DNA of 34,150 bases from a virus (taxonomy: Duplodnaviria; Heunggongvirae; Uroviricota; Caudoviricetes). Positions 17,740-31,978 of this stretch are shown one piece after another. The notes beneath the pieces are model-generated. The model saw nothing but the letters and a program-made list of their open reading frames with translations, was not told the DNA's origin and made no database searches. The stretch is from IMG/VR virus record IMGVR_UViG_2706794688_000010. One strand, 5' to 3'. Both the position numbers and the translations under genes were made by a program. The stretch's first letter is position 1. Each line of letters begins with the position of its first letter.

Positions 17740-19042
17740 TTAGGAGCGCCAAAAAAAACCTGAAAACAATATAATAACAGGATAAATTTCAAGGCGACCA
17801 AGAATCATAGCTATGCACATTAAATATTTTGCAATGTCATTAAGCACTCCGAATGACGATGCAGTAGCCCCAAAACCTAATCCCATATTATTAATACATG
17901 CAGCCACTGTTGCAAATGATGTAAGAAAATCATATCCCATACCATTTAACACCAGTATAAAAAACACCGTGAAGAGAGTATAAAGAAAAAAGAAACTCCA
18001 TACAGACCTCATTACACGATCTGTAACTATCTTCCCTCCTACATTTACACTCAACAACGCTCTGGGATGAGAAAGCTGATTTATCTCGTGTTTGCTTTGT
18101 TTGAAAAGTATAAGAAATCGAAGTGACTTAATTCCACCACAGGTTGAACCTATACATCCCCCAAAGAAACTTGACAACAGCAAAAACACTATCGTGTGCG
18201 TGGGCCAGTTTGCATAATCCTGCGTAGCTAAACCATTATCAGTGAGCATGGAGCTGGCAAGAAAAAACGAATGAATAAAACTTCCATGCAAGTCATACAT
18301 ACCTATATGCCAGACCTGGAAAGAGGTAACAATGATCACCCCTAAGGCTATTAACAGAAAGAAACGAAGTTCAATATCTCTGATTAAAGGTTTTATCGTT
18401 TTTCTGCTAATAACAATATACCAAAGAGTGAAGTTGAAAGCCGATAGCAGGGAAAAAGAACCAGCCACCAGCTCAACCAAATAGTTATTAAAATATCCGA
18501 TACTCTCNNNNNNNNNNNNNNNNNNNNNNNNNNNNNNNNNNNNNNNNNNNNNNNNNNNNNNNNNNNNNNNNNNNNNNNNNNNNNNNNNNNNNNNNNNNNN
18601 NAACAATAACTCCTAAACCACCTATAAAATTTAACTGTGACCGATAGTACAAATATGCCCGAGGTAATGAACTAACATCATCAATTACAGTTGCTCCTGT
18701 TGTTGTTATTCCAGAAACCCCTTCAAACAGAGCATCAATGAACGTTAAATTAAGTTCTGAGTCAATCCATAAAGGGAATGCACTAATAACAGAAAACAAA
18801 ATCCAAAACATTACAATTATAATAAACCCATCACGGGTACGTAATTGAATGCCAGATTTCTTAGTTGTATACCACGCTCCGCCACCAATGCAAAAAAATA
18901 TAACGAAAGTTATAAAGAAAACGAACAGGCTTTTTTCTTTATAAAACAATGCTACAACCATTGGTGGCAACATTGAAAGACTATAGAGCCAAACCAGGAA
19001 CCCACACATATGAGTAACAACTCTTACATGAGATGTATTCAT
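17740..19042 (-). CDS. trkG: Trk-type potassium uptake protein TrkG (interrupted by N-run 18508-18601)
   Basis: N-terminus MNTSHVRVVTHMCGFLVWLYSLSMLPPMVVALFYKEKSLF... and C-terminus ...ILGRLEIYPVIILFSGFFWRS match the Rac-prophage TrkG as I recall it; multi-pass membrane protein; AT-rich gene directly downstream of Rz as in Rac. Confidence 0.85.
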
Positions 19043-21579: not shown

Positions 21580-22164
21580 TTTTCCTCACATATGTCATAT
21601 AGTAAAGGATTATATATACCGTTGTTTTGGACGCTCAAACAGCGAATCAGATCAAATAAAACGCACATTTGTTAACATTTACACAAAGTCTGCGTGGGAT
21701 ATTCTGAAAGAATATCCATAATGTGGAGAGAATCTATTGAAGTGCATGGTGCCGGGTGCCTCCCGGTGAACAAAATGTTCGTGATACCTGTCGGCGACAG
21801 AAAAGGTTAATGGTATCACCCCACCGCACAGGGGGATTCACCATGCAGGAGTTTTCTTAGCAAACTCACTGCGCGCCCGGCAACTCCCAACCACATAAAA
21901 TGCGGAGTTTGTGGCATTTATGCATATAACTCGCAGGAATTATCTTAAAAAACTGATGTCGATCCGGATTAAAAAGAAGCAGGTCATCATCAGATGACTG
22001 GAAAAAAGGAAAACAAAAAATACTCATCATACAGTTTTGATTGCAGGGATGAGCCTGCTATGCACAATATGCAGAATATAAGCAAGATAAAAATATGCAG
22101 GCATATTATTTCGGATCTTGTTATTAACACAACCTTTTTAATAATCATTTGGCATACAATAAAC

Positions 22165-22196: not shown

Positions 22197-22646
22197 GGTC
22201 AATACAAAGGATGCTTCGTCTTTATTATAGTAATCTGAGGCGTCGGGTGTCTTGTATCAGACAACATATTGTCCCGCTAAACAGCGAATTACAAACCACC
22301 CTNNNNNNNNNNNNNNNNNNNNNNNNNNNNNNNNNNNNNNNNNNNNNNNNNNNNNNNNNNNNNNNNNNNNNNNNNNNNNNNNNNNNNNNNNNNNNNNNNN
22401 NNNNNNNNNNNNNNNNNNNNNNNNNNNNNNNNNNNNNNNNNNNNNNNNNNNNNNNNNNNNNNNNNNNNNNNNNNNNNNNNNNNNNNNNNNNNNNNNNNNN
22501 NNNNNNNNNNNNNNNNNNNNNNNNNNNNNNNNNNNNNNNNNNNNNNNNNNNNNNNNNNNNNNNNNNNNNNNNNNNNNNNNNNCAATCCGCCTCGCGATAC
22601 AGCTTTGCGAAGCATAGCAAAATTGAAGCAGTTTATACGTAAGAAA

Positions 22647-22984: not shown

Positions 22985-23234
22985 NNNNNNNNNNNNNNNN
23001 NNNNNNNNNNNNNNNNNNNNNNNNNNNNNNNNNNNNNNNNNNNNNNNNNNNNNNNNNNNNNNNNNNNNNNNNNNNNNNNNNNNNNNNNNNNNNNNNNNNN
23101 NNNNNNNNNNNNNNNNNNNNNNNNNNNNNNNNNNNNNNNNNNNNNNNNNNNNNNNNNNNNNNNNNNNNNNNNNNNNNNNNNNNNNNNNNNNNNNNNNNNN
23201 NNNNNNNNNNNNNNNNNNNNNNNNNNNNNNNNNN

Positions 23235-24078: not shown

Positions 24079-24881
24079 TTCTCAATCTCTCGATGGCGCA
24101 GCGCAGCAGATGCCAGTTGTTCAGGCTGACGAATAAAGTATAAATAAACTGGCTATGGTGTAAAGCCCCACATAGCATGAACAAACACTACATATCAAAT
24201 AGCTGGTACAAGGATAGAAATACGACACTTATTATTAAAANNNNNNNNNNNNNNNNNNNNNNNNNNNNNNNNNNNNNNNNNNNNNNNNNNNNNNNNNNNN
24301 NNNNNNNNNNNNNNNNNNNNNNNNNNNNNNNNNNNNNNNNNNNNNNNNNNNNNNNNNNNNNNNNNNNNNNNNNNNNNNNNNNNNNNNNNNNNNNNNNNNN
24401 NNNNNNNNNNNNNNNNNNNNNNNNNNNNNNNNNNNNNNNNNNNNNNNNNNNNNNNNNNNNNNNNNNNNNNNNNNNNNNNNNNNNNNNNNNNNNNNNNNNN
24501 NNNNNNNNNNACTCAAGTCATTAACATTTGATAAGATATATCTAAAAGGACGCCTTTACATTATTTATGCGTATATAATTTATTTATATACACAGTAAAG
24601 GTATCCTGGGAAAATATTTATCGTTAAAAAATACATCATAAATAATTAAGCTGAAATTTCAGAACACAACTAATACACACAATAAGGTTCAGTAACAGTA
24701 ATCTATGTGGACTACATCGAGATTTTTTGATTAAACTTTAATAACTTATTCCTAACACACAGAATGCATAAACTAAAAGTAAAACAAATAGTTATACGAA
24801 AAACAACCATATTTATTCTATCTTCTCCTCTAATCAACATATCAATTATGTGTTTCATAACAGCTTGACATAACCCTCCAA

Positions 24882-25878: not shown

Positions 25879-26880
25879 TTAGTAATCTGCGTGTTTCGCA
25901 CTTTTCAGAAATGCTTTCATATTTTCATTAGGTCGCTCAATTTCGAAGTTACTTCCATATAACTCTTGTAATTTTGGCCATAACTTACTTAATAACCCTC
26001 TCCTGCGATAAAATGGATGTATCCAAACGGTAGATAGGTACGGAGAATTTGCATTTGAATTGTTTATTGTGACCAGCCCAACTAAACATTGTCGATAACC
26101 ACTATTATCCATTGATTGTATTTCTTCGACGAATGGATACGCGATTACATCAGTCCAACCATGATCGGTTGTATCCCATTGCATTCCGTCATGACATTCC
26201 TTCGACTGATAGCGGCGTAAAGCTACACACGCGAGCTTTTGCCAATCTGGAGAATTAATTGTGATCTCTTCATCGTATGACGCGCCTATTGGAGCGGGTA
26301 TTGGTCTGATTAATCCAGCATGGCATTCATCATAGAACTTCATGTTTCCCTCAGAAACGTTGTGTACGTTGGGTTGCTCCATGTGTGCGCCATTCAAAAA
26401 TAGCTCTGATAGTAGTGTATCTACACTGTAATCTTTATTGATTATTGTCGGCTTAGAGTTTTTCTTATTAAGGCCGCGAGTAACGATTTTTTGATCAATG
26501 TTAACAACATGGAATAATCCGTCGGGGAGGCTAGCGAACCACGATGGGGCATCGGACCAGAATAGCATGCCTTTTGTACTTCTTAAGAGTTTAATTAAGT
26601 TAATACAAGCTTCTTCACTAGTCTTGCCGTTGATGCGAAGTATGTTAGGACTAAAGTAATATTCATCCATATCAGGGAATGCAGCTTCGCAAAACTCCTG
26701 TACATAATTTAGCACCTGGATTCTACAGAGATCATCATAGCTGGTAATAACTAAGGGGGTATCTTCATTACTATTATGATTATCAATAATGCAATCTATA
26801 GCGAGACTTACTGCTTTGCGTATCACTTCAGTTGAATCTAACGACTCTAAAAATTTTGTCTTTCGTGTGCGAATATCCAT
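25879..26880 (-). CDS. Hypothetical protein, 333 aa, possible C-terminal GNAT-like acetyltransferase motif
   Basis: Second gene of an AT-rich two-gene cassette, 16 nt after the upstream gene; C-terminal ...CLVGLVTINN...YLSTVWIHPFYRRRGLLSKLW... resembles GNAT motif A (h-x-V-h-P-x-Y-R-x-x-G); motif-level only. Confidence 0.55.
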   Translation of the reverse strand: MDIRTRKTKFLESLDSTEVIRKAVSLAIDCIIDNHNSNEDTPLVITSYDDLCRIQVLNYVQEFCEAAFPDMDEYYFSPNILRINGKTSEEACINLIKLLRSTKGMLFWSDAPSWFASLPDGLFHVVNIDQKIVTRGLNKKNSKPTIINKDYSVDTLLSELFLNGAHMEQPNVHNVSEGNMKFYDECHAGLIRPIPAPIGASYDEEITINSPDWQKLACVALRRYQSKECHDGMQWDTTDHGWTDVIAYPFVEEIQSMDNSGYRQCLVGLVTINNSNANSPYLSTVWIHPFYRRRGLLSKLWPKLQELYGSNFEIERPNENMKAFLKSAKHADY

Positions 26881-26895
26881 GTATGACCTGCGCTA

Positions 26896-27918
26896 TTAAA
26901 ATTCATGAATGAACGGTTTGTCATCTGGTTGCAAAATGGTGGTTTTATTCGTTGCTACATTTAAACTGTTGTAGAGCATAATTGCCAGGTTCGATGCATT
27001 TTCAATCAGCGTTTCAAGATCCTGGTCTGTAATCACTACGAGGTTCCCTTCTTTATCCTTTCCACCACGATGCACTAAGTGATTTCGATTGAGGGTTGCC
27101 AATTCAATAGCTTCTATCGGACAGTCTTTTTGTACTTTTATATCGAATGTAGCTTCATAGCGGTCGATTACCTTTTTAGTGCTATGCCAGCTTGCACTGA
27201 TCAAGTGTTCCTTGATTGACCTGATTAGCTCTCCCCTAATTTTCTCGATGGGTTCACCCTTGAAAGGCAACGCAGCAATATCTTTGCTTACTTTAAATTC
27301 AGTCTTACCTTTTTCTATACAATTGGCTATGTAGACATCATCTTTCTCTATAGAATTAATGAATAGCTCAACATAAAGCGTTTCCAAAGCTGTAATAACA
27401 TTCGTGTAGAGCAAACTAAGCAAGTGGTTTTTTTGCTGTTGTTCAGTTTTATCTTTTGCAAGTTTTTTTATTTTATCGATATTATCAATGAATTTTAAAT
27501 ACGGATTACCGGAAGACGTTACAGCGTCGTAGATATCATCATCGTACCAATCATCTATATTATTTGAGTTTCCAGACCAGTCAAAACATTGTGTTTGTAA
27601 TTCATCTACTAATTCCTCAATATACTCAGATTTAACATATTGACCGAAGATGGATTGTAGTTCTTCGCTCGCATCATACGGCCCGCCATATATGTAAGCA
27701 TAGCCACCTTCTCTACTTTCATACGGACAAGCATTTGCCGGATCTTCAAAGTTTTCAAAGAACCAGTTTTTCATTACTTCGAGTTGATCTTTTTTGCTTA
27801 TGTATTTTAAAGATTTTAGTGGAACTTTCTTTCCATTAACCTCGAAAACAATTTTCACGATGTAACGCTCCCTTGTATCAATTGCGCAACTATTATACCA
27901 CAGCGAAATACAGGGCAT
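26896..27918 (-). CDS. Hypothetical protein, ~341 aa, possible HEPN-like Rx4H motif
   Basis: ATG at 27918 preceded by AAGGAGG (6-nt spacer); an alternative GTG at 27855 follows an internal TGGTATAAT and AAGGGAG; C-terminal ...ATLNRNHLVHRGG... contains R-N-x3-H; acidic central region; low GC. Confidence 0.55.
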   Translation of the reverse strand: MPCISLWYNSCAIDTRERYIVKIVFEVNGKKVPLKSLKYISKKDQLEVMKNWFFENFEDPANACPYESREGGYAYIYGGPYDASEELQSIFGQYVKSEYIEELVDELQTQCFDWSGNSNNIDDWYDDDIYDAVTSSGNPYLKFIDNIDKIKKLAKDKTEQQQKNHLLSLLYTNVITALETLYVELFINSIEKDDVYIANCIEKGKTEFKVSKDIAALPFKGEPIEKIRGELIRSIKEHLISASWHSTKKVIDRYEATFDIKVQKDCPIEAIELATLNRNHLVHRGGKDKEGNLVVITDQDLETLIENASNLAIMLYNSLNVATNKTTILQPDDKPFIHEF

Positions 27919-28056
27919 AACCTGCCTCCTTAAACTAACATACCATGAGCCAGCAATGTCCGCTATTGGCACAAAGCGGACAACCACGCTAGCTCTCCCC
28001 TGTGCCAGAAAAATGTCAATTTACATATGAACTAATGCTCTTTGATCTAGTAACGT

Positions 28057-28473
28057 CTATAAATACCGAAGATTTCCTTGATAAAATGCCAGTACACGTT
28101 TCATAACTTCACTCTTCCGGCACTCGCGACAGATTATGTTCTGACGCCTGTCATAGCGGCGTATTTCTCCGTCTGGTAATGACCAGATAAGGTCAGGATC
28201 AACCACAACCGTTTTTTTCACCTTTGCCCTGGATAGTTTTTTGCGGGCGTTTTTCCAATCCTTACGAGCCTGTTCAGACGGGAATAACCCATAGCCAGAG
28301 TTGTATACATCGCCACTGGCAACCAACTCTCTGGCAAGAATGCTCATCAGATATCTTGTCGCACCTGTCTTGGCCTCCAGTTGCCTTAACGTCTCGCGCC
28401 CACTCTGGCGTACCAACTCAACAACCTGCTCCTTAATTTTTTCACGCTCTTCCTGTGTAAAAACTTTTGCCAT
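28057..28473 (-). CDS. Winged-helix-like small protein, paralog of the gene at 30795-31217
   Basis: Start MAKVFTQEEREKIKEQVVELVRQ... with GGAGG RBS; about 85% nucleotide identity to 30800-31040 over the C-terminal two thirds (…GDVYNSGYGLFPSEQARKDW…DPDLIWSLPDGEIRRYDRR.NIICRECRKSE…). Confidence 0.6.
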   Translation of the reverse strand: MAKVFTQEEREKIKEQVVELVRQSGRETLRQLEAKTGATRYLMSILARELVASGDVYNSGYGLFPSEQARKDWKNARKKLSRAKVKKTVVVDPDLIWSLPDGEIRRYDRRQNIICRECRKSEVMKRVLAFYQGNLRYL

Positions 28474-28488
28474 AAGCGCCTCCGGCAA

Positions 28489-29250: not shown

Positions 29251-29272
29251 AAAAATTTCCTCCCGGTAAAAA

Positions 29273-29338
29273 TTACTTCTCAATTCCTGGCTGGACGACA
29301 TTCGGACGCCAGCTCTCCCAGTTAAAATTCACCCATCG
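29273..29338 (-). pseudogene. 3' fragment of a second DnaC-like (YdaV-like) gene, remainder in N-run
   Basis: Encodes ...[21 protein letters not shown]; about 37 nt identical to the 3' end of ydaV at 31255-31300. Confidence 0.4.
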
Positions 29339-29588
29339 NNNNNNNNNNNNNNNNNNNNNNNNNNNNNNNNNNNNNNNNNNNNNNNNNNNNNNNNNNNNNN
29401 NNNNNNNNNNNNNNNNNNNNNNNNNNNNNNNNNNNNNNNNNNNNNNNNNNNNNNNNNNNNNNNNNNNNNNNNNNNNNNNNNNNNNNNNNNNNNNNNNNNN
29501 NNNNNNNNNNNNNNNNNNNNNNNNNNNNNNNNNNNNNNNNNNNNNNNNNNNNNNNNNNNNNNNNNNNNNNNNNNNNNNNNNNNNNNNN

Positions 29589-30233
29589 GATAAGAGGGCG
29601 TCCCTGAGATTTGCGGTGTAGATTGGTATCGCGCAGAGAATACACACAGCCACAATATTCCTGCTGATAGAATTTTTCGCGCTTGCTGATTTCAATCATA
29701 CGGGACGAGCCGCCCTGCTTGCGCCAGTTATAATCCCAGTACACCATGCCCGGATAATGCGCGACGGCTCGCCGCCCACAGTCGTTAACCTGCTGCATAT
29801 TTTTCCAGCGTGAAATGCCCAGTGAACTGCTGATCACACTGAAACCATTTTCAGCGGCGTACAGCGCTGTCCGCTCAAAACGCATGTCAAAACACATGGT
29901 GCAACGGATCCCTCGTTCGGGCTCCCATTCCATTCCTTTGGCTCGTTCAAACCAGTTGTCTGTGTCGTAATCAGCATCAATAAACGGCACGCCGTGTTGT
30001 TCAGCAAAGCGAATATTCTCATCCTTACGAATTAAATACTCTTTCTGAGGATGAATGTTCGGGTTGTAGAAAAAGATGGTGTAGTCGATTCCCGAGGCCT
30101 GAAGCGCCTCCATCACCTCACCGGAACATGGAGCACAGCAAGAGTGCAGTAGTAGTTTGTTTGCCCCGTTTGGGAGCTCCAATTTGGGCCGTTTGAAATC
30201 AGCAACTGTCATAAATATGTTTATTGGGGTCAT
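29589..30233 (-). CDS. QueH-like (DUF208) epoxyqueuosine reductase-like protein, C-terminus in N-run
   Basis: N-terminal [17 protein letters not shown] plus downstream Cys motifs ([17 protein letters not shown]) fit my recollection of the DUF208/QueH Fe-S family; weak RBS. Confidence 0.5.
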
Positions 30234-30380
30234 AAAAATATCAAAGAGTGTAGCATTAGAACGGGGCTATCGGAAACAGATGTGTGACTGCTCCCCGCCC
30301 TTTCGGGTGGTCTCCTGATGATTTGAGGGTGCAGAAATCCCTCCGGTTAAGGATTAAATTTTTAACAGTGCTAAATTTAA

Positions 30381-30737
30381 TTATTCAGTTCTGGATTTTG
30401 TCGCCCTGCGTATCCGCGCTTTCGCGTTACGCTCAATCTGTATCAGCTTTTCTATATTTCTCCGCCTTTCCTGTTCCTCCTGGCGCAATAGCCTTACATC
30501 ATCTGCCAGTCTGGTTTCTCTTTTTGCCACAGAGAGCATCCAGTCAAACGGCTCCACAACCGCACCGCAGATTTTACAGCGGACCTGACGCTCTTTTTCG
30601 TCAACCCGTACAGAGGCGTGATGGCAATATGGTCTTTCCGATGGCTCATAAAGAAAATTAACCTGATTACGAGGGTCATCCTCTTTTACCGGAAATAAAA
30701 CGATATTGCTTAACTCATCTTCTGGTTTTATTTCCAT
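30381..30737 (-). CDS. Small Zn-ribbon-like hypothetical protein
   Basis: Start MEIKPEDEL... with AAGGAG RBS; C..HH...C..C cluster (YCHHASVRVDEKERQVRCKICG); basic coiled C-terminus. Confidence 0.5.
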   Translation of the reverse strand: MEIKPEDELSNIVLFPVKEDDPRNQVNFLYEPSERPYCHHASVRVDEKERQVRCKICGAVVEPFDWMLSVAKRETRLADDVRLLRQEEQERRRNIEKLIQIERNAKARIRRATKSRTE

Positions 30738-30794: not shown

Positions 30795-31217
30795 TCACAG
30801 TATCGCCTCCTGAAAATTACCCTGATAGAAAGCCAGTACACGCTGCATAGCTTCGCTCTTCCGGCACTCGCGACAGATTATATTCAGGCGCCTGTCGTAG
30901 CGGCGTATTTCTCCGTCAGGTAATGACCAGATAAGGTCCGGATCAACAACAACCGGTTTCCTCACCTTTACTCTCGAGAGTTTTTTGCGGGCGCTTTGCC
31001 AGTCCTTGCGAGCCTGTTCAGACGGGAATAAGCCGTAGCCAGAATTATATACATCACCACTTGCGACCAGTTCTATGCATAAGCGACCGACAGACGCACG
31101 ACTGATACCTGTTTCATCTGACAACTGCCGAATCGTGACCCGACCGTCCTGATGCACGAGTTCCACAATTCGCGTCTTCAGTTCTTCCCGCTGTTCGGGA
31201 GTAAAAGGTTTCGCCAT
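30795..31217 (-). CDS. Winged-helix-like small protein (likely the intact counterpart of Rac ydaW), paralog of 28057-28473
   Basis: 140 aa, AGGAGG RBS; immediately downstream of ydaV; paralogous to the second copy. Confidence 0.55.
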   Translation of the reverse strand: MAKPFTPEQREELKTRIVELVHQDGRVTIRQLSDETGISRASVGRLCIELVASGDVYNSGYGLFPSEQARKDWQSARKKLSRVKVRKPVVVDPDLIWSLPDGEIRRYDRRLNIICRECRKSEAMQRVLAFYQGNFQEAIL

Positions 31218-31231
31218 AAATCCTCCTGAAA

Positions 31232-31978
31232 CTACTTAACAACCCTCGAATGGCTAACATTCGGACGCCAGCTCTCCCAGTTAAAATTCACCCAGCGCCC
31301 GCCGTTCATGACCATGCGATCCATCACCCGCTCGCCGAGCAATGTTTTCATCACCTCATAGTTCAGGTTTGTCAGCATCCCCACGCTGCGCATCGACGCT
31401 GTCCGGCGATCAACAATCTGGTGCAGCACCACCTGCTCGTTTTTCGTCTCGCGCTGAATGCCAATTTCATCAAGAACCAGCAGATCCACTTCGCATAGTT
31501 CCCGCAAAAATTTTTCGCCTGACTGCCCATCGTCATAGCTGGCGTGCAGGGCACTCATAACATCAGCCACGGTAACCACAATCACTGTCTGACCGTCTTT
31601 CAGCAGGCGATTCCCGATAGCTGCCGCTAAGTGGTTCTTCCCGGTACCAGGTTTTCCGCTGAACGCAAAATTTGTACACCCGGTCATCAGTTCATCAGCG
31701 ATGGATTTCGCCTGACTCAACGCGTATCGCTGCGCTTCGTTCTGCACCTGGTAATTCGAAAACGAGCATTTGCGGTGCAATGGCTGGATGCCAGAGCGAT
31801 TCAGAATTTTTTCCACCCGCAACTGACGATTCTGACGGTTGATCTCCTCACAACGTTTCTGGCCTTCGGAAAGTTGCCACTCGCGCCACTCCGCTACCGT
31901 CTTGAATGGCGCGGTTACATGTGACGGGGCCAGTCTGCGGATACGTTCAAGAACGTCGCCTGTCGCAATATTTTTCAT
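31232..31978 (-). CDS. ydaV: DnaC-like replication helicase loader (IstB-like ATPase)
   Basis: Walker A FSGKPGTGKNHLAAAIG and Walker B LLVLDEIG; follows ydaU as in Rac. Confidence 0.8.
   Translation of the reverse strand: MKNIATGDVLERIRRLAPSHVTAPFKTVAEWREWQLSEGQKRCEEINRQNRQLRVEKILNRSGIQPLHRKCSFSNYQVQNEAQRYALSQAKSIADELMTGCTNFAFSGKPGTGKNHLAAAIGNRLLKDGQTVIVVTVADVMSALHASYDDGQSGEKFLRELCEVDLLVLDEIGIQRETKNEQVVLHQIVDRRTASMRSVGMLTNLNYEVMKTLLGERVMDRMVMNGGRWVNFNWESWRPNVSHSRVVK

Follow-up and report, generated by a model that had tools for sequence, protein, structure and literature searches.

QueA forms epoxyqueuosine at position 34 (oQ34) of tRNA-Asp, -Asn, -His and -Tyr, and QueG reduces oQ34 to queuosine (Q34). 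We know of no de novo cobalamin synthesis in Escherichia coli. The full queuosine pathway is established for E. coli (PMC9508795), where QueG is one of few cobamide enzymes (PMC11841063) and where, as in Salmonella, the oQ-to-Q step depends on cobalamin, according to a passage of PMC4646009 that cites Frey 1988. A second, non-homologous enzyme, QueH, performs this reduction without cobalamin (PMC5615194, PMC10378866). The two oQ reductases, with their different cofactors, coexist in one cell in Staphylococcus aureus, where their expression profiles differ and where nothing indicates that queG or queH is phage-borne (PMC13443448). Phage-borne genes of the queuosine and archaeosine pathways are known from the 7-deazaguanine DNA modification clusters, which combine a DNA transglycosylase (DpdA) with the preQ0 genes FolE, QueC, QueD and QueE and are without QueA, QueG or QueH; a 2019 survey of queuosine-related genes found no QueH among the viruses analysed (PMC6884629). 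Here we describe a queH gene that stands alone, without such companions, in a 34,150-nt stretch of Caudoviricetes DNA (IMG/VR record IMGVR_UViG_2706794688_000010; hereafter the window), in which a sequence-only reading had recognized a QueH-like (DUF208) protein carried as prophage cargo beside a Zn-ribbon gene.

Judged by its sequence and its predicted fold, the prophage protein is an orthodox, full-length QueH and not a diverged relative, and the gene very probably encodes a functional enzyme. The profile search gave a match to Pfam PF02677 (QueH, formerly DUF208) with E=1.6e-65 and 220.9 bits, compared to a cut-off of 23.5 bits, over positions 1–174 of the 175 in the profile, and phmmer aligned the whole domain with Thermotoga maritima QueH (7LC5; E=4.5e-22). 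Conserved residues were assessed in an alignment of 79 diverse full-length representatives, drawn from 1.84 billion cluster representatives, with numbering from ATG 30212. All of the conserved QueH cysteines are kept, namely C25, C26 and C29 of the CCAPC motif, C104 and C107 of R103-C104-x-x-C107, and C187 and C189 of C187-G-C189; each of these seven columns holds a cysteine in 54–79 of the 65–81 homologues that have a residue there. Also kept are N50, N52, E58, Y59, R62, W87, E99, R103, R111 and K137. Li and co-workers are reported to have described, in 2021, that the cysteines of CCAPC, RCxxC and CGC ligate a [4Fe-4S] cluster and an adjacent iron. An AlphaFold2 model of the protein (mean predicted local distance difference test score, 78) contains the adenine-nucleotide-alpha-hydrolase-like fold of the solved QueH structures. 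Its top Foldseek matches are five T. maritima QueH entries with target-normalised template modelling scores of 0.83–0.85; the matches to 7LC7, 9D86 and 7LC5 have E values of about 1e-11 and root mean square deviations of 2.4–2.6 Å, and other PP-loop/AANH enzymes rank below these with far weaker scores. The likeness to T. maritima QueH (7LC5, 7LC7, 9DEU) extends over the full domain, the fold and the Cys, Arg and Glu positions. The prophage protein differs from it in an N-terminal extension of ~20 residues, a short C-terminal tail and its CCAPC motif, which is the family norm (68 of 73 sequences), whereas T. maritima has the exceptional CCAPD, the Asp13 of which is the target of the deposited D13N mutant. 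It differs, too, in being prophage-borne in a host that already has QueG. RefSeq/PGAP names the identical protein 'epoxyqueuosine reductase QueH', and as the family, its reaction and the protein name are already in databases, the kind of system is already known.

The open reading frame (ORF) of QueH lies on the minus strand and enters a run of Ns. The visible 645 nt of this ORF are 100% identical to E. coli FDAARGOS_944, in which the stop codon falls 42 nt inside the stretch masked here (locus L001, 5959-6624). Read from FDAARGOS_944, the residues hidden by the mask are 13 at the C-terminus, KIGQLHYGKEEKE, and because the mask covers only these, the catalytic domain is wholly visible. The start used by RefSeq for the identical gene is ATG 30212, which fits the 214–223 residues of QueH orthologues; an alternative in-frame start is ATG 30233. 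The window contains six N-runs of 94–280 nt (611-860, 18508-18601, 22303-22582, 22985-23234, 24241-24510 and 29339-29588), ~1.4 kb in total. Placed on NCTC10444, they fall in unrelated places that include a tail gene, trkG, intergenic DNA and a DUF1133/DUF1364 gene, and their appearance is that of arbitrary masking, not of gaps in the assembly, the one at QueH not being specific to the gene. The sequence-only reading had raised a truncation within the N-run, which is unlikely to matter as only 13 residues outside the domain are hidden. It had also called for the masked 3' end to be resolved. That was possible in part: the stop and the 13 residues could be supplied from FDAARGOS_944, but the junction was matched in no genome, and as this recombination junction must fall within the masked 250 nt, the last 13 codons are inferred for this window.

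The setting seems to be the unexplored part of the finding: a second, vitamin B12 (cobalamin)-independent oQ reductase is encoded on lambdoid prophages in ~18% of complete E. coli genomes. Queried with the QueH gene alone, the set of 5426 complete E. coli genomes gave matches in 995, of which 985 reach at least 80% coverage, and the matches are nearly all chromosomal and mostly single copy. Because queG is present in all 5426, every QueH carrier has both enzymes. QueG and QueH share the same predicted reaction, oQ-tRNA to Q-tRNA, but differ in fold and cofactor; QueG is a core enzyme that requires cobalamin (PMC4646009), whereas QueH is found in the ~18%. Unlike S. aureus, E. coli thus has its second enzyme as strain-variable prophage cargo. 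The view that a phage-borne QueH is unexpected in a host that uses QueG was therefore right about the redundancy, but hardly so for a protein that is this widespread and already named by RefSeq.

Among viral sequences, IMG/VR contains at least 188 contigs with a close QueH relative, and PHROGs lists the family as phrog_3217, of 'unknown function'. Two records of 'Acinetobacter phage MD-2021a' (CAKLQH020000001.1 and CAKLQF020000001.1, 328–379 kb) encode a QueH that is 79% identical, and their size makes bacterial sequence contamination likely. In ATCC 11303, an E. coli B strain, QueH is situated within a Qin-like prophage (L010 3959-4624), and upstream of QueH the gene order is the same in this prophage and in the coliphage HannyBb, in which QueH is annotated as 'hypothetical protein': an O-like replication gene, a DUF977/Ren-like gene and a methyltransferase remnant. 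The part of MG1655 that was examined showed queG alone. The searchable literature yielded no relevant paper on QueH or DUF208 with phage or prophage.

As a cobalamin-independent Fe-S enzyme, the prophage QueH would reduce oQ34 to Q34 in tRNA-Asp, -Asn, -His and -Tyr, and with QueG as the other oQ reductase of the host, the final queuosine step would no longer depend on cobalamin supply. Lambdoid phages carry the gene as an accessory module of the early-right region, where it follows the replication genes and comes before the hok, nin and Q genes. This cassette would keep 71 nt from the 5' flank that it originally had, with an extended -10-like element in them, and would probably have its own transcription in the lysogen, plus read-through from PR after induction. 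We put the overall explanation, a functional QueH blended with expression in the lysogen and a B12-related benefit, at a probability of roughly 0.7, and its parts differ in strength. That the enzyme gives cobalamin-independent oQ-to-Q reduction is probable. For expression in lysogens together with a B12-independence benefit we see about even odds, and the selective benefit itself is speculative. The more specific proposal, that QueH is a lysogenic-conversion gene for tRNA modification, transcribed from an inherited extended -10 promoter in uninduced lysogens, is tentative and rather more doubtful.

The relatives of the prophage protein point to a host origin. QueH of Scandinavium, Enterobacter and Kluyvera is 90–96% identical to it, and QueH of Erwinia, Pantoea, Pectobacterium, Serratia, Photorhabdus, Providencia, Proteus and others 80–88%. 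These Enterobacterales genes outside lambdoid prophages have the same length but are chromosomal in setting: Providencia queH is located beside tmcA and purC-type genes, Pantoea queH between a beta-lactamase-family gene and a P-type ATPase gene (mgtA), near smpB, and Enterobacter sp. ECC-175 queH beside genes read as icd, rluE and a chorismate-mutase gene. No lambdoid marker gene was found within 8 kb of queH at any of 79 non-Escherichia species loci, whereas the Escherichia copies are located in lambdoid prophages, and the E. albertii locus has a lambdoid marker within 8 kb. The best reading of these sequences is that QueH is a host gene taken up by lambdoid phages from an Enterobacteriaceae chromosome.

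Two of the Enterobacter loci carry further observations. In E. hormaechei B56 (L015 7160-8669), queH is 96% identical, level with Scandinavium as the closest non-Escherichia copy, and it lies directly downstream of a gene for a 234-residue tyrosine recombinase (Pfam Phage_integrase, E=5e-18); the flanks, as read from translations, contain a GntR-type regulator and an oxidoreductase on one side and a LysR regulator and acetoin (bud) genes on the other. Recombinase and queH appear to form a two-gene mini-island here, and queH may use more than one vehicle. In Enterobacter sp. ECC-175 (L018 5677-8669), queH is 91% identical and ~1 kb from the gene read as icd, which we take to be the attachment site of lambdoid elements (e14, phage 21) in E. 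coli; this proximity hints, speculatively, at queH capture through aberrant excision.

To gauge selection, six alleles were compared by the Nei-Gojobori method: those of the window, A10, ATCC 11303, O157:H7 Z1767, O103 ML775 and phage HannyBb. All six ORFs are intact and of equal length. The ratio of nonsynonymous to synonymous divergence (dN/dS) is 0.028–0.064 in every pair with dS above 0.1, dS reaching 0.46. These values indicate purifying selection of housekeeping grade during prophage residence.

The case for transcription in the lysogen rests on the 71-nt leader (Table 1). Most E. coli matches stop at its upstream end, window position 30283 (query position 695). Of the 87 prophage loci, 85 have TGCTACACT within this leader, always at one and the same distance from the start codon. 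At non-prophage loci of Enterobacter, Scandinavium, Kluyvera and Symbiopectobacterium, TGCTACA[AC]T or TGCTATATT is present 40–50 nt upstream of queH, while the other upstream DNA around it cannot be aligned. The motif occurs in 12 of 80 species loci, compared to a background expectation of 0.01 per stretch of equal length. TGnTAnnnT is an extended -10 promoter form that does not need a good -35. We infer that the cassette retained a native queH promoter and would hence be transcribable in the lysogen. Such an arrangement resembles the lambdoid 'morons' and nin-region accessory genes, single host-derived genes with a putative promoter placed between phage modules with variable neighbours, but differs from them in that no terminator was detected in FDAARGOS_944. 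Rfam at E of 1 or less found nothing in the QueH leader, which thus contains no preQ1 riboswitch, and the leader RNA fold is no better than shuffles (z=-1.4).

Several observations weigh against our interpretation. Among 50,697 deposited phage genomes, HannyBb is the one credible cultured coliphage with QueH, and the searchable literature holds no experiment on any E. coli prophage QueH. The NCBIfam scan of QueH and the Zn-ribbon protein returned no match, and the 13 C-terminal QueH residues are masked, with a recombination junction somewhere under the same 250 nt. The promoter motif is conserved within the closest clade only, that is, the 12 species loci. A scan for the standard sigma-70 -35/-10 consensus found no promoter on the QueH strand, a scan that could miss this motif because an extended -10 needs no good -35. 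No Shine-Dalgarno sequence is evident before ATG 30212 or ATG 30233, and no intrinsic terminator was found downstream of QueH in FDAARGOS_944 (L001), the nearest relative, the corresponding stretch of the window being masked. Finally, deletion of queG left the growth of an E. coli metE deletion strain unaltered with either cobamide (PMC11841063).

A rival reading is a purely lytic role, in which QueH would be silent in the lysogen, transcribed from PR on induction, and would raise the ratio of Q to oQ in host tRNAs, to the benefit of translation of phage genes rich in NAU and NAC codons. In all contexts examined QueH is in the early-right operon, where it has the orientation of the replication genes and precedes the Q antiterminator. 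Neither a canonical -35/-10 promoter nor a terminator was found, and in Shewanella both queG expression and the Q/oQ ratio go up when phages infect, so that this step responds to infection (bioRxiv 10.64898/2026.03.05.709803). We nonetheless regard this role as unlikely. The extended -10-like motif has been kept from non-prophage loci, and the 71-nt leader always accompanies QueH. Moreover, the gene shows a dN/dS of ~0.04 even though a large share of the prophages with it are probably defective, which speaks for selection in the lysogen. No tRNA gene turned up in a scan of the window. Related QueH prophages have genes for Gly, Thr, Arg and Ile tRNAs ahead of their lysis genes (L001 3060-3370, L009 201-354), none of which is of the queuosine type (GUN anticodon).

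The window is a full-length Rac-type prophage with tail, head, terminase and lysis genes, trkG and ydaT/U/V, and over 25 kb it matches the Rac-type prophage of E. coli NCTC10444 with 99.9% identity, which confirms QueH as prophage cargo. In NCTC10444 and ten similar genomes a DUF1627 gene directly follows ydaV; in the window an extra block of 1,959 bp intervenes, consisting of the ydaV 3' part, DUF977 copy A, the Zn-ribbon gene and QueH, and running into the mask. The block differs from FDAARGOS_944 at 3 positions in ~1.8 kb. The ydaV gene is a hybrid, of NCTC10444 type in its 5' part and of FDAARGOS_944 type in its 3' part, with the crossover near 31390-31410 forming the left block edge, and it is an intact ORF of 248 residues. 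The block would have entered the Rac-type prophage through recombination within ydaV between two lambdoid prophages. Its arrangement in the window was found in none of the 5426 complete E. coli genomes (minimum coverage, 80%) and at none of the 87 prophage loci, and the same holds for QueH followed by a ydaV fragment. Elsewhere, the position and orientation of QueH are constant: it comes after the replication module, usually right behind DUF977, and is followed by hokD, rem, nin-like genes and the Q antiterminator, an order shared by Rac-like and Qin/DLP12-like prophages and by HannyBb. The genes downstream of QueH differ between loci, with hokD, a DUF1971 gene and an NgoMIV-type restriction-modification pair among them.

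Table 1 Features of the QueH block and its borders in the window.
Feature	Coordinates	Strand	Basis or remark
Right direct repeat	29270..29338		Orphan NCTC10444-type ydaV 3' fragment (29273-29338), ends at mask
250-N mask	29339..29588	none	Covers QueH 3' end and right-hand block junction
Masked QueH 3' end	29547..29588	minus	Predicted from FDAARGOS_944 stop: 13 codons and stop
QueH coding sequence, visible part	29589..30212	minus	208 codons from RefSeq-style ATG 30212; ORF list, Pfam
QueH leader, 71 nt	30213..30283	minus	Upstream homology between contexts ends at -71, 65 fetched loci
TGCTACACT, extended -10-like motif	30247..30255	minus	43-35 nt upstream of ATG 30212
Zn-ribbon and long-helix protein, 118 aa	30381..30737	minus	phrog_1621 (unknown function), PHROG E=3e-56
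DUF977/Ren-like gene, copy A	30795..31217	minus	Pfam PF06163 E=1.1e-33; phrog_142; ~99.8% to FDAARGOS_944
Left direct repeat	31229..31297		ydaV 3' end; repeat search, spacing 1959 nt
ydaV (DnaC-like ATPase), hybrid	31232..31978	minus	Mismatch profiles vs FDAARGOS_944 and NCTC10444

The placement of the block reflects either a recent recombination of two lambdoid prophages or, less likely, an assembly problem. In the latter case two co-resident lambdoid prophages would have been joined wrongly via their shared ydaV, QueH itself being real. An arrangement matched in no complete genome, a block edged by repeats of the ydaV 3' end and the masking of the decisive right-hand junction speak for such an artefact. 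We consider it improbable, since a simple chimera switches prophage once and would not re-enter the same Rac-type sequence at the same point, and since ydaV, though hybrid, is still an intact ORF and changes type at a clean crossover, as from homologous recombination.

It is very unlikely that QueH is a passenger without function, or in decay, within a grounded prophage. The gene is redundant with the universal queG, deletion of queG is without growth effect in reported conditions, and many lambdoid prophages are defective. Against this stand the purifying selection on the prophage alleles, with dN/dS of 0.03–0.06 over dS up to 0.46, which disfavours decay, the intact and equally long sampled alleles, the retention of every conserved residue, and the presence of QueH in one viable phage, HannyBb.

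We give still less credence to the suggestion of the sequence-only reading that the protein is a diverged QueH-like enzyme acting on 7-deazaguanine in phage DNA, in the manner of Dpd systems, and not on tRNA. Phages do put 7-deazaguanines into their own DNA (PMC6884629), and this QueH is phage-borne. However, an identity of 80–96% to non-lambdoid Enterobacterales QueH, with conserved residues all intact and strong purifying selection, does not describe a diverged member, and the epoxy substrate needs QueA acting on preQ1-tRNA. In addition, the annotation of the near-identical NCTC10444 prophage, which corresponds to the window except for the block, contains no DpdA/TGT transglycosylase and none of the preQ0 genes folE, queD, queE and queC, the block itself encodes only DUF977, Zn-ribbon and QueH proteins, and Hutinet et al. 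report no QueA, QueG or QueH in 7-deazaguanine phages (PMC6884629).

The Zn-ribbon gene is indeed co-located with QueH (Table 1). Its ORF encodes a C-x-H...C-x2-C motif with a sub-threshold Pfam match to the TFIIB Zn-ribbon. Among 36 aligned homologues C38, H40, C54 and C57 are invariant and the C-terminal helix NIEKLIQIERNAKARIRR nearly so. The model consists of a small beta-hairpin knuckle followed by a single long helix (residues 63–117), and its fold search gave no significant PDB match, returning generic Zn-ribbons only (best E=0.45). The family is confined to Enterobacterales prophages, sometimes fused to Ea22-like sequence, and the gene is present in 1680 of the 5426 complete E. coli genomes with varied neighbours, such as Ea22-like genes. 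Across the 87 fetched prophage loci, the upstream neighbour of QueH is DUF977 in 64 and the Zn-ribbon gene in 17; among the ~985 QueH-carrying complete genomes the two genes are contiguous in 2 (FDAARGOS_943 and FDAARGOS_944). None of the non-prophage loci has a Zn-ribbon gene beside queH, and homology between prophage contexts breaks between the two genes, at -71. A 118-residue gene upstream of Pantoea queH was considered as a Zn-ribbon protein and rejected, as it has no similarity. On these distributions, with 995 QueH and 1680 Zn-ribbon genomes, the Zn-ribbon gene is best described as an independent lambdoid neighbour of QueH and not a partner as had been proposed. A two-gene functional unit, with the Zn-ribbon protein as electron donor, tRNA adaptor or regulator, is thus barely credible, even though the genes are adjacent and co-oriented in the window, in FDAARGOS_943/944 and at those 17 loci.

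Other features of the window were also recorded. The two DUF977 (Ren-like, phrog_142) paralogues, at 28057-28488 and 30795-31217, share 86% identity across 266 nt; copy B is part of the Rac backbone, and copy A arrived with the QueH block. Downstream of copy B, within the accessory region and on the minus strand at 25879-27987, are two large co-oriented genes of unknown function, one of 363 residues (phrog_17908) with a sub-threshold match to a HEPN/RES N-terminal domain and one of 333 residues (phrog_16994) with a sub-threshold GNAT match. They could be a toxin or defence pair; PADLOC gave no matches for either, and on the block proteins it returned nothing meaningful. In strain A10, QueH occupies the place held here by these two genes. 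Rfam at gathering thresholds found, in the whole window, the small RNA STnc100 alone (86.6 bits, full length), on the minus strand at 21690-21876, between the lysis genes and the Q-like region and far from QueH.

In itself the find is an ordinary enzyme, correctly identified, in a setting of mild interest. The less explored question is that of a B12 independence of queuosine synthesis that phages would deliver and that would vary between strains; it bears on the tuning of host translation by prophages and on the B12 economy of the gut. If QueH is expressed in lysogens, strains would differ in tRNA Q versus oQ when cobalamin is absent, and queuosine maturation would be cobalamin-independent in roughly one fifth of E. 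coli strains, including E. coli B but not K-12; B and K-12, both workhorse laboratory lineages, may accordingly differ in whether they need B12 to form queuosine. Where B12 is scarce, as in the gut, fitness and the Q/oQ status of tRNA would be altered, and a temperate phage would, for the first time on record, provide an enzyme dedicated to the queuosine-tRNA pathway.

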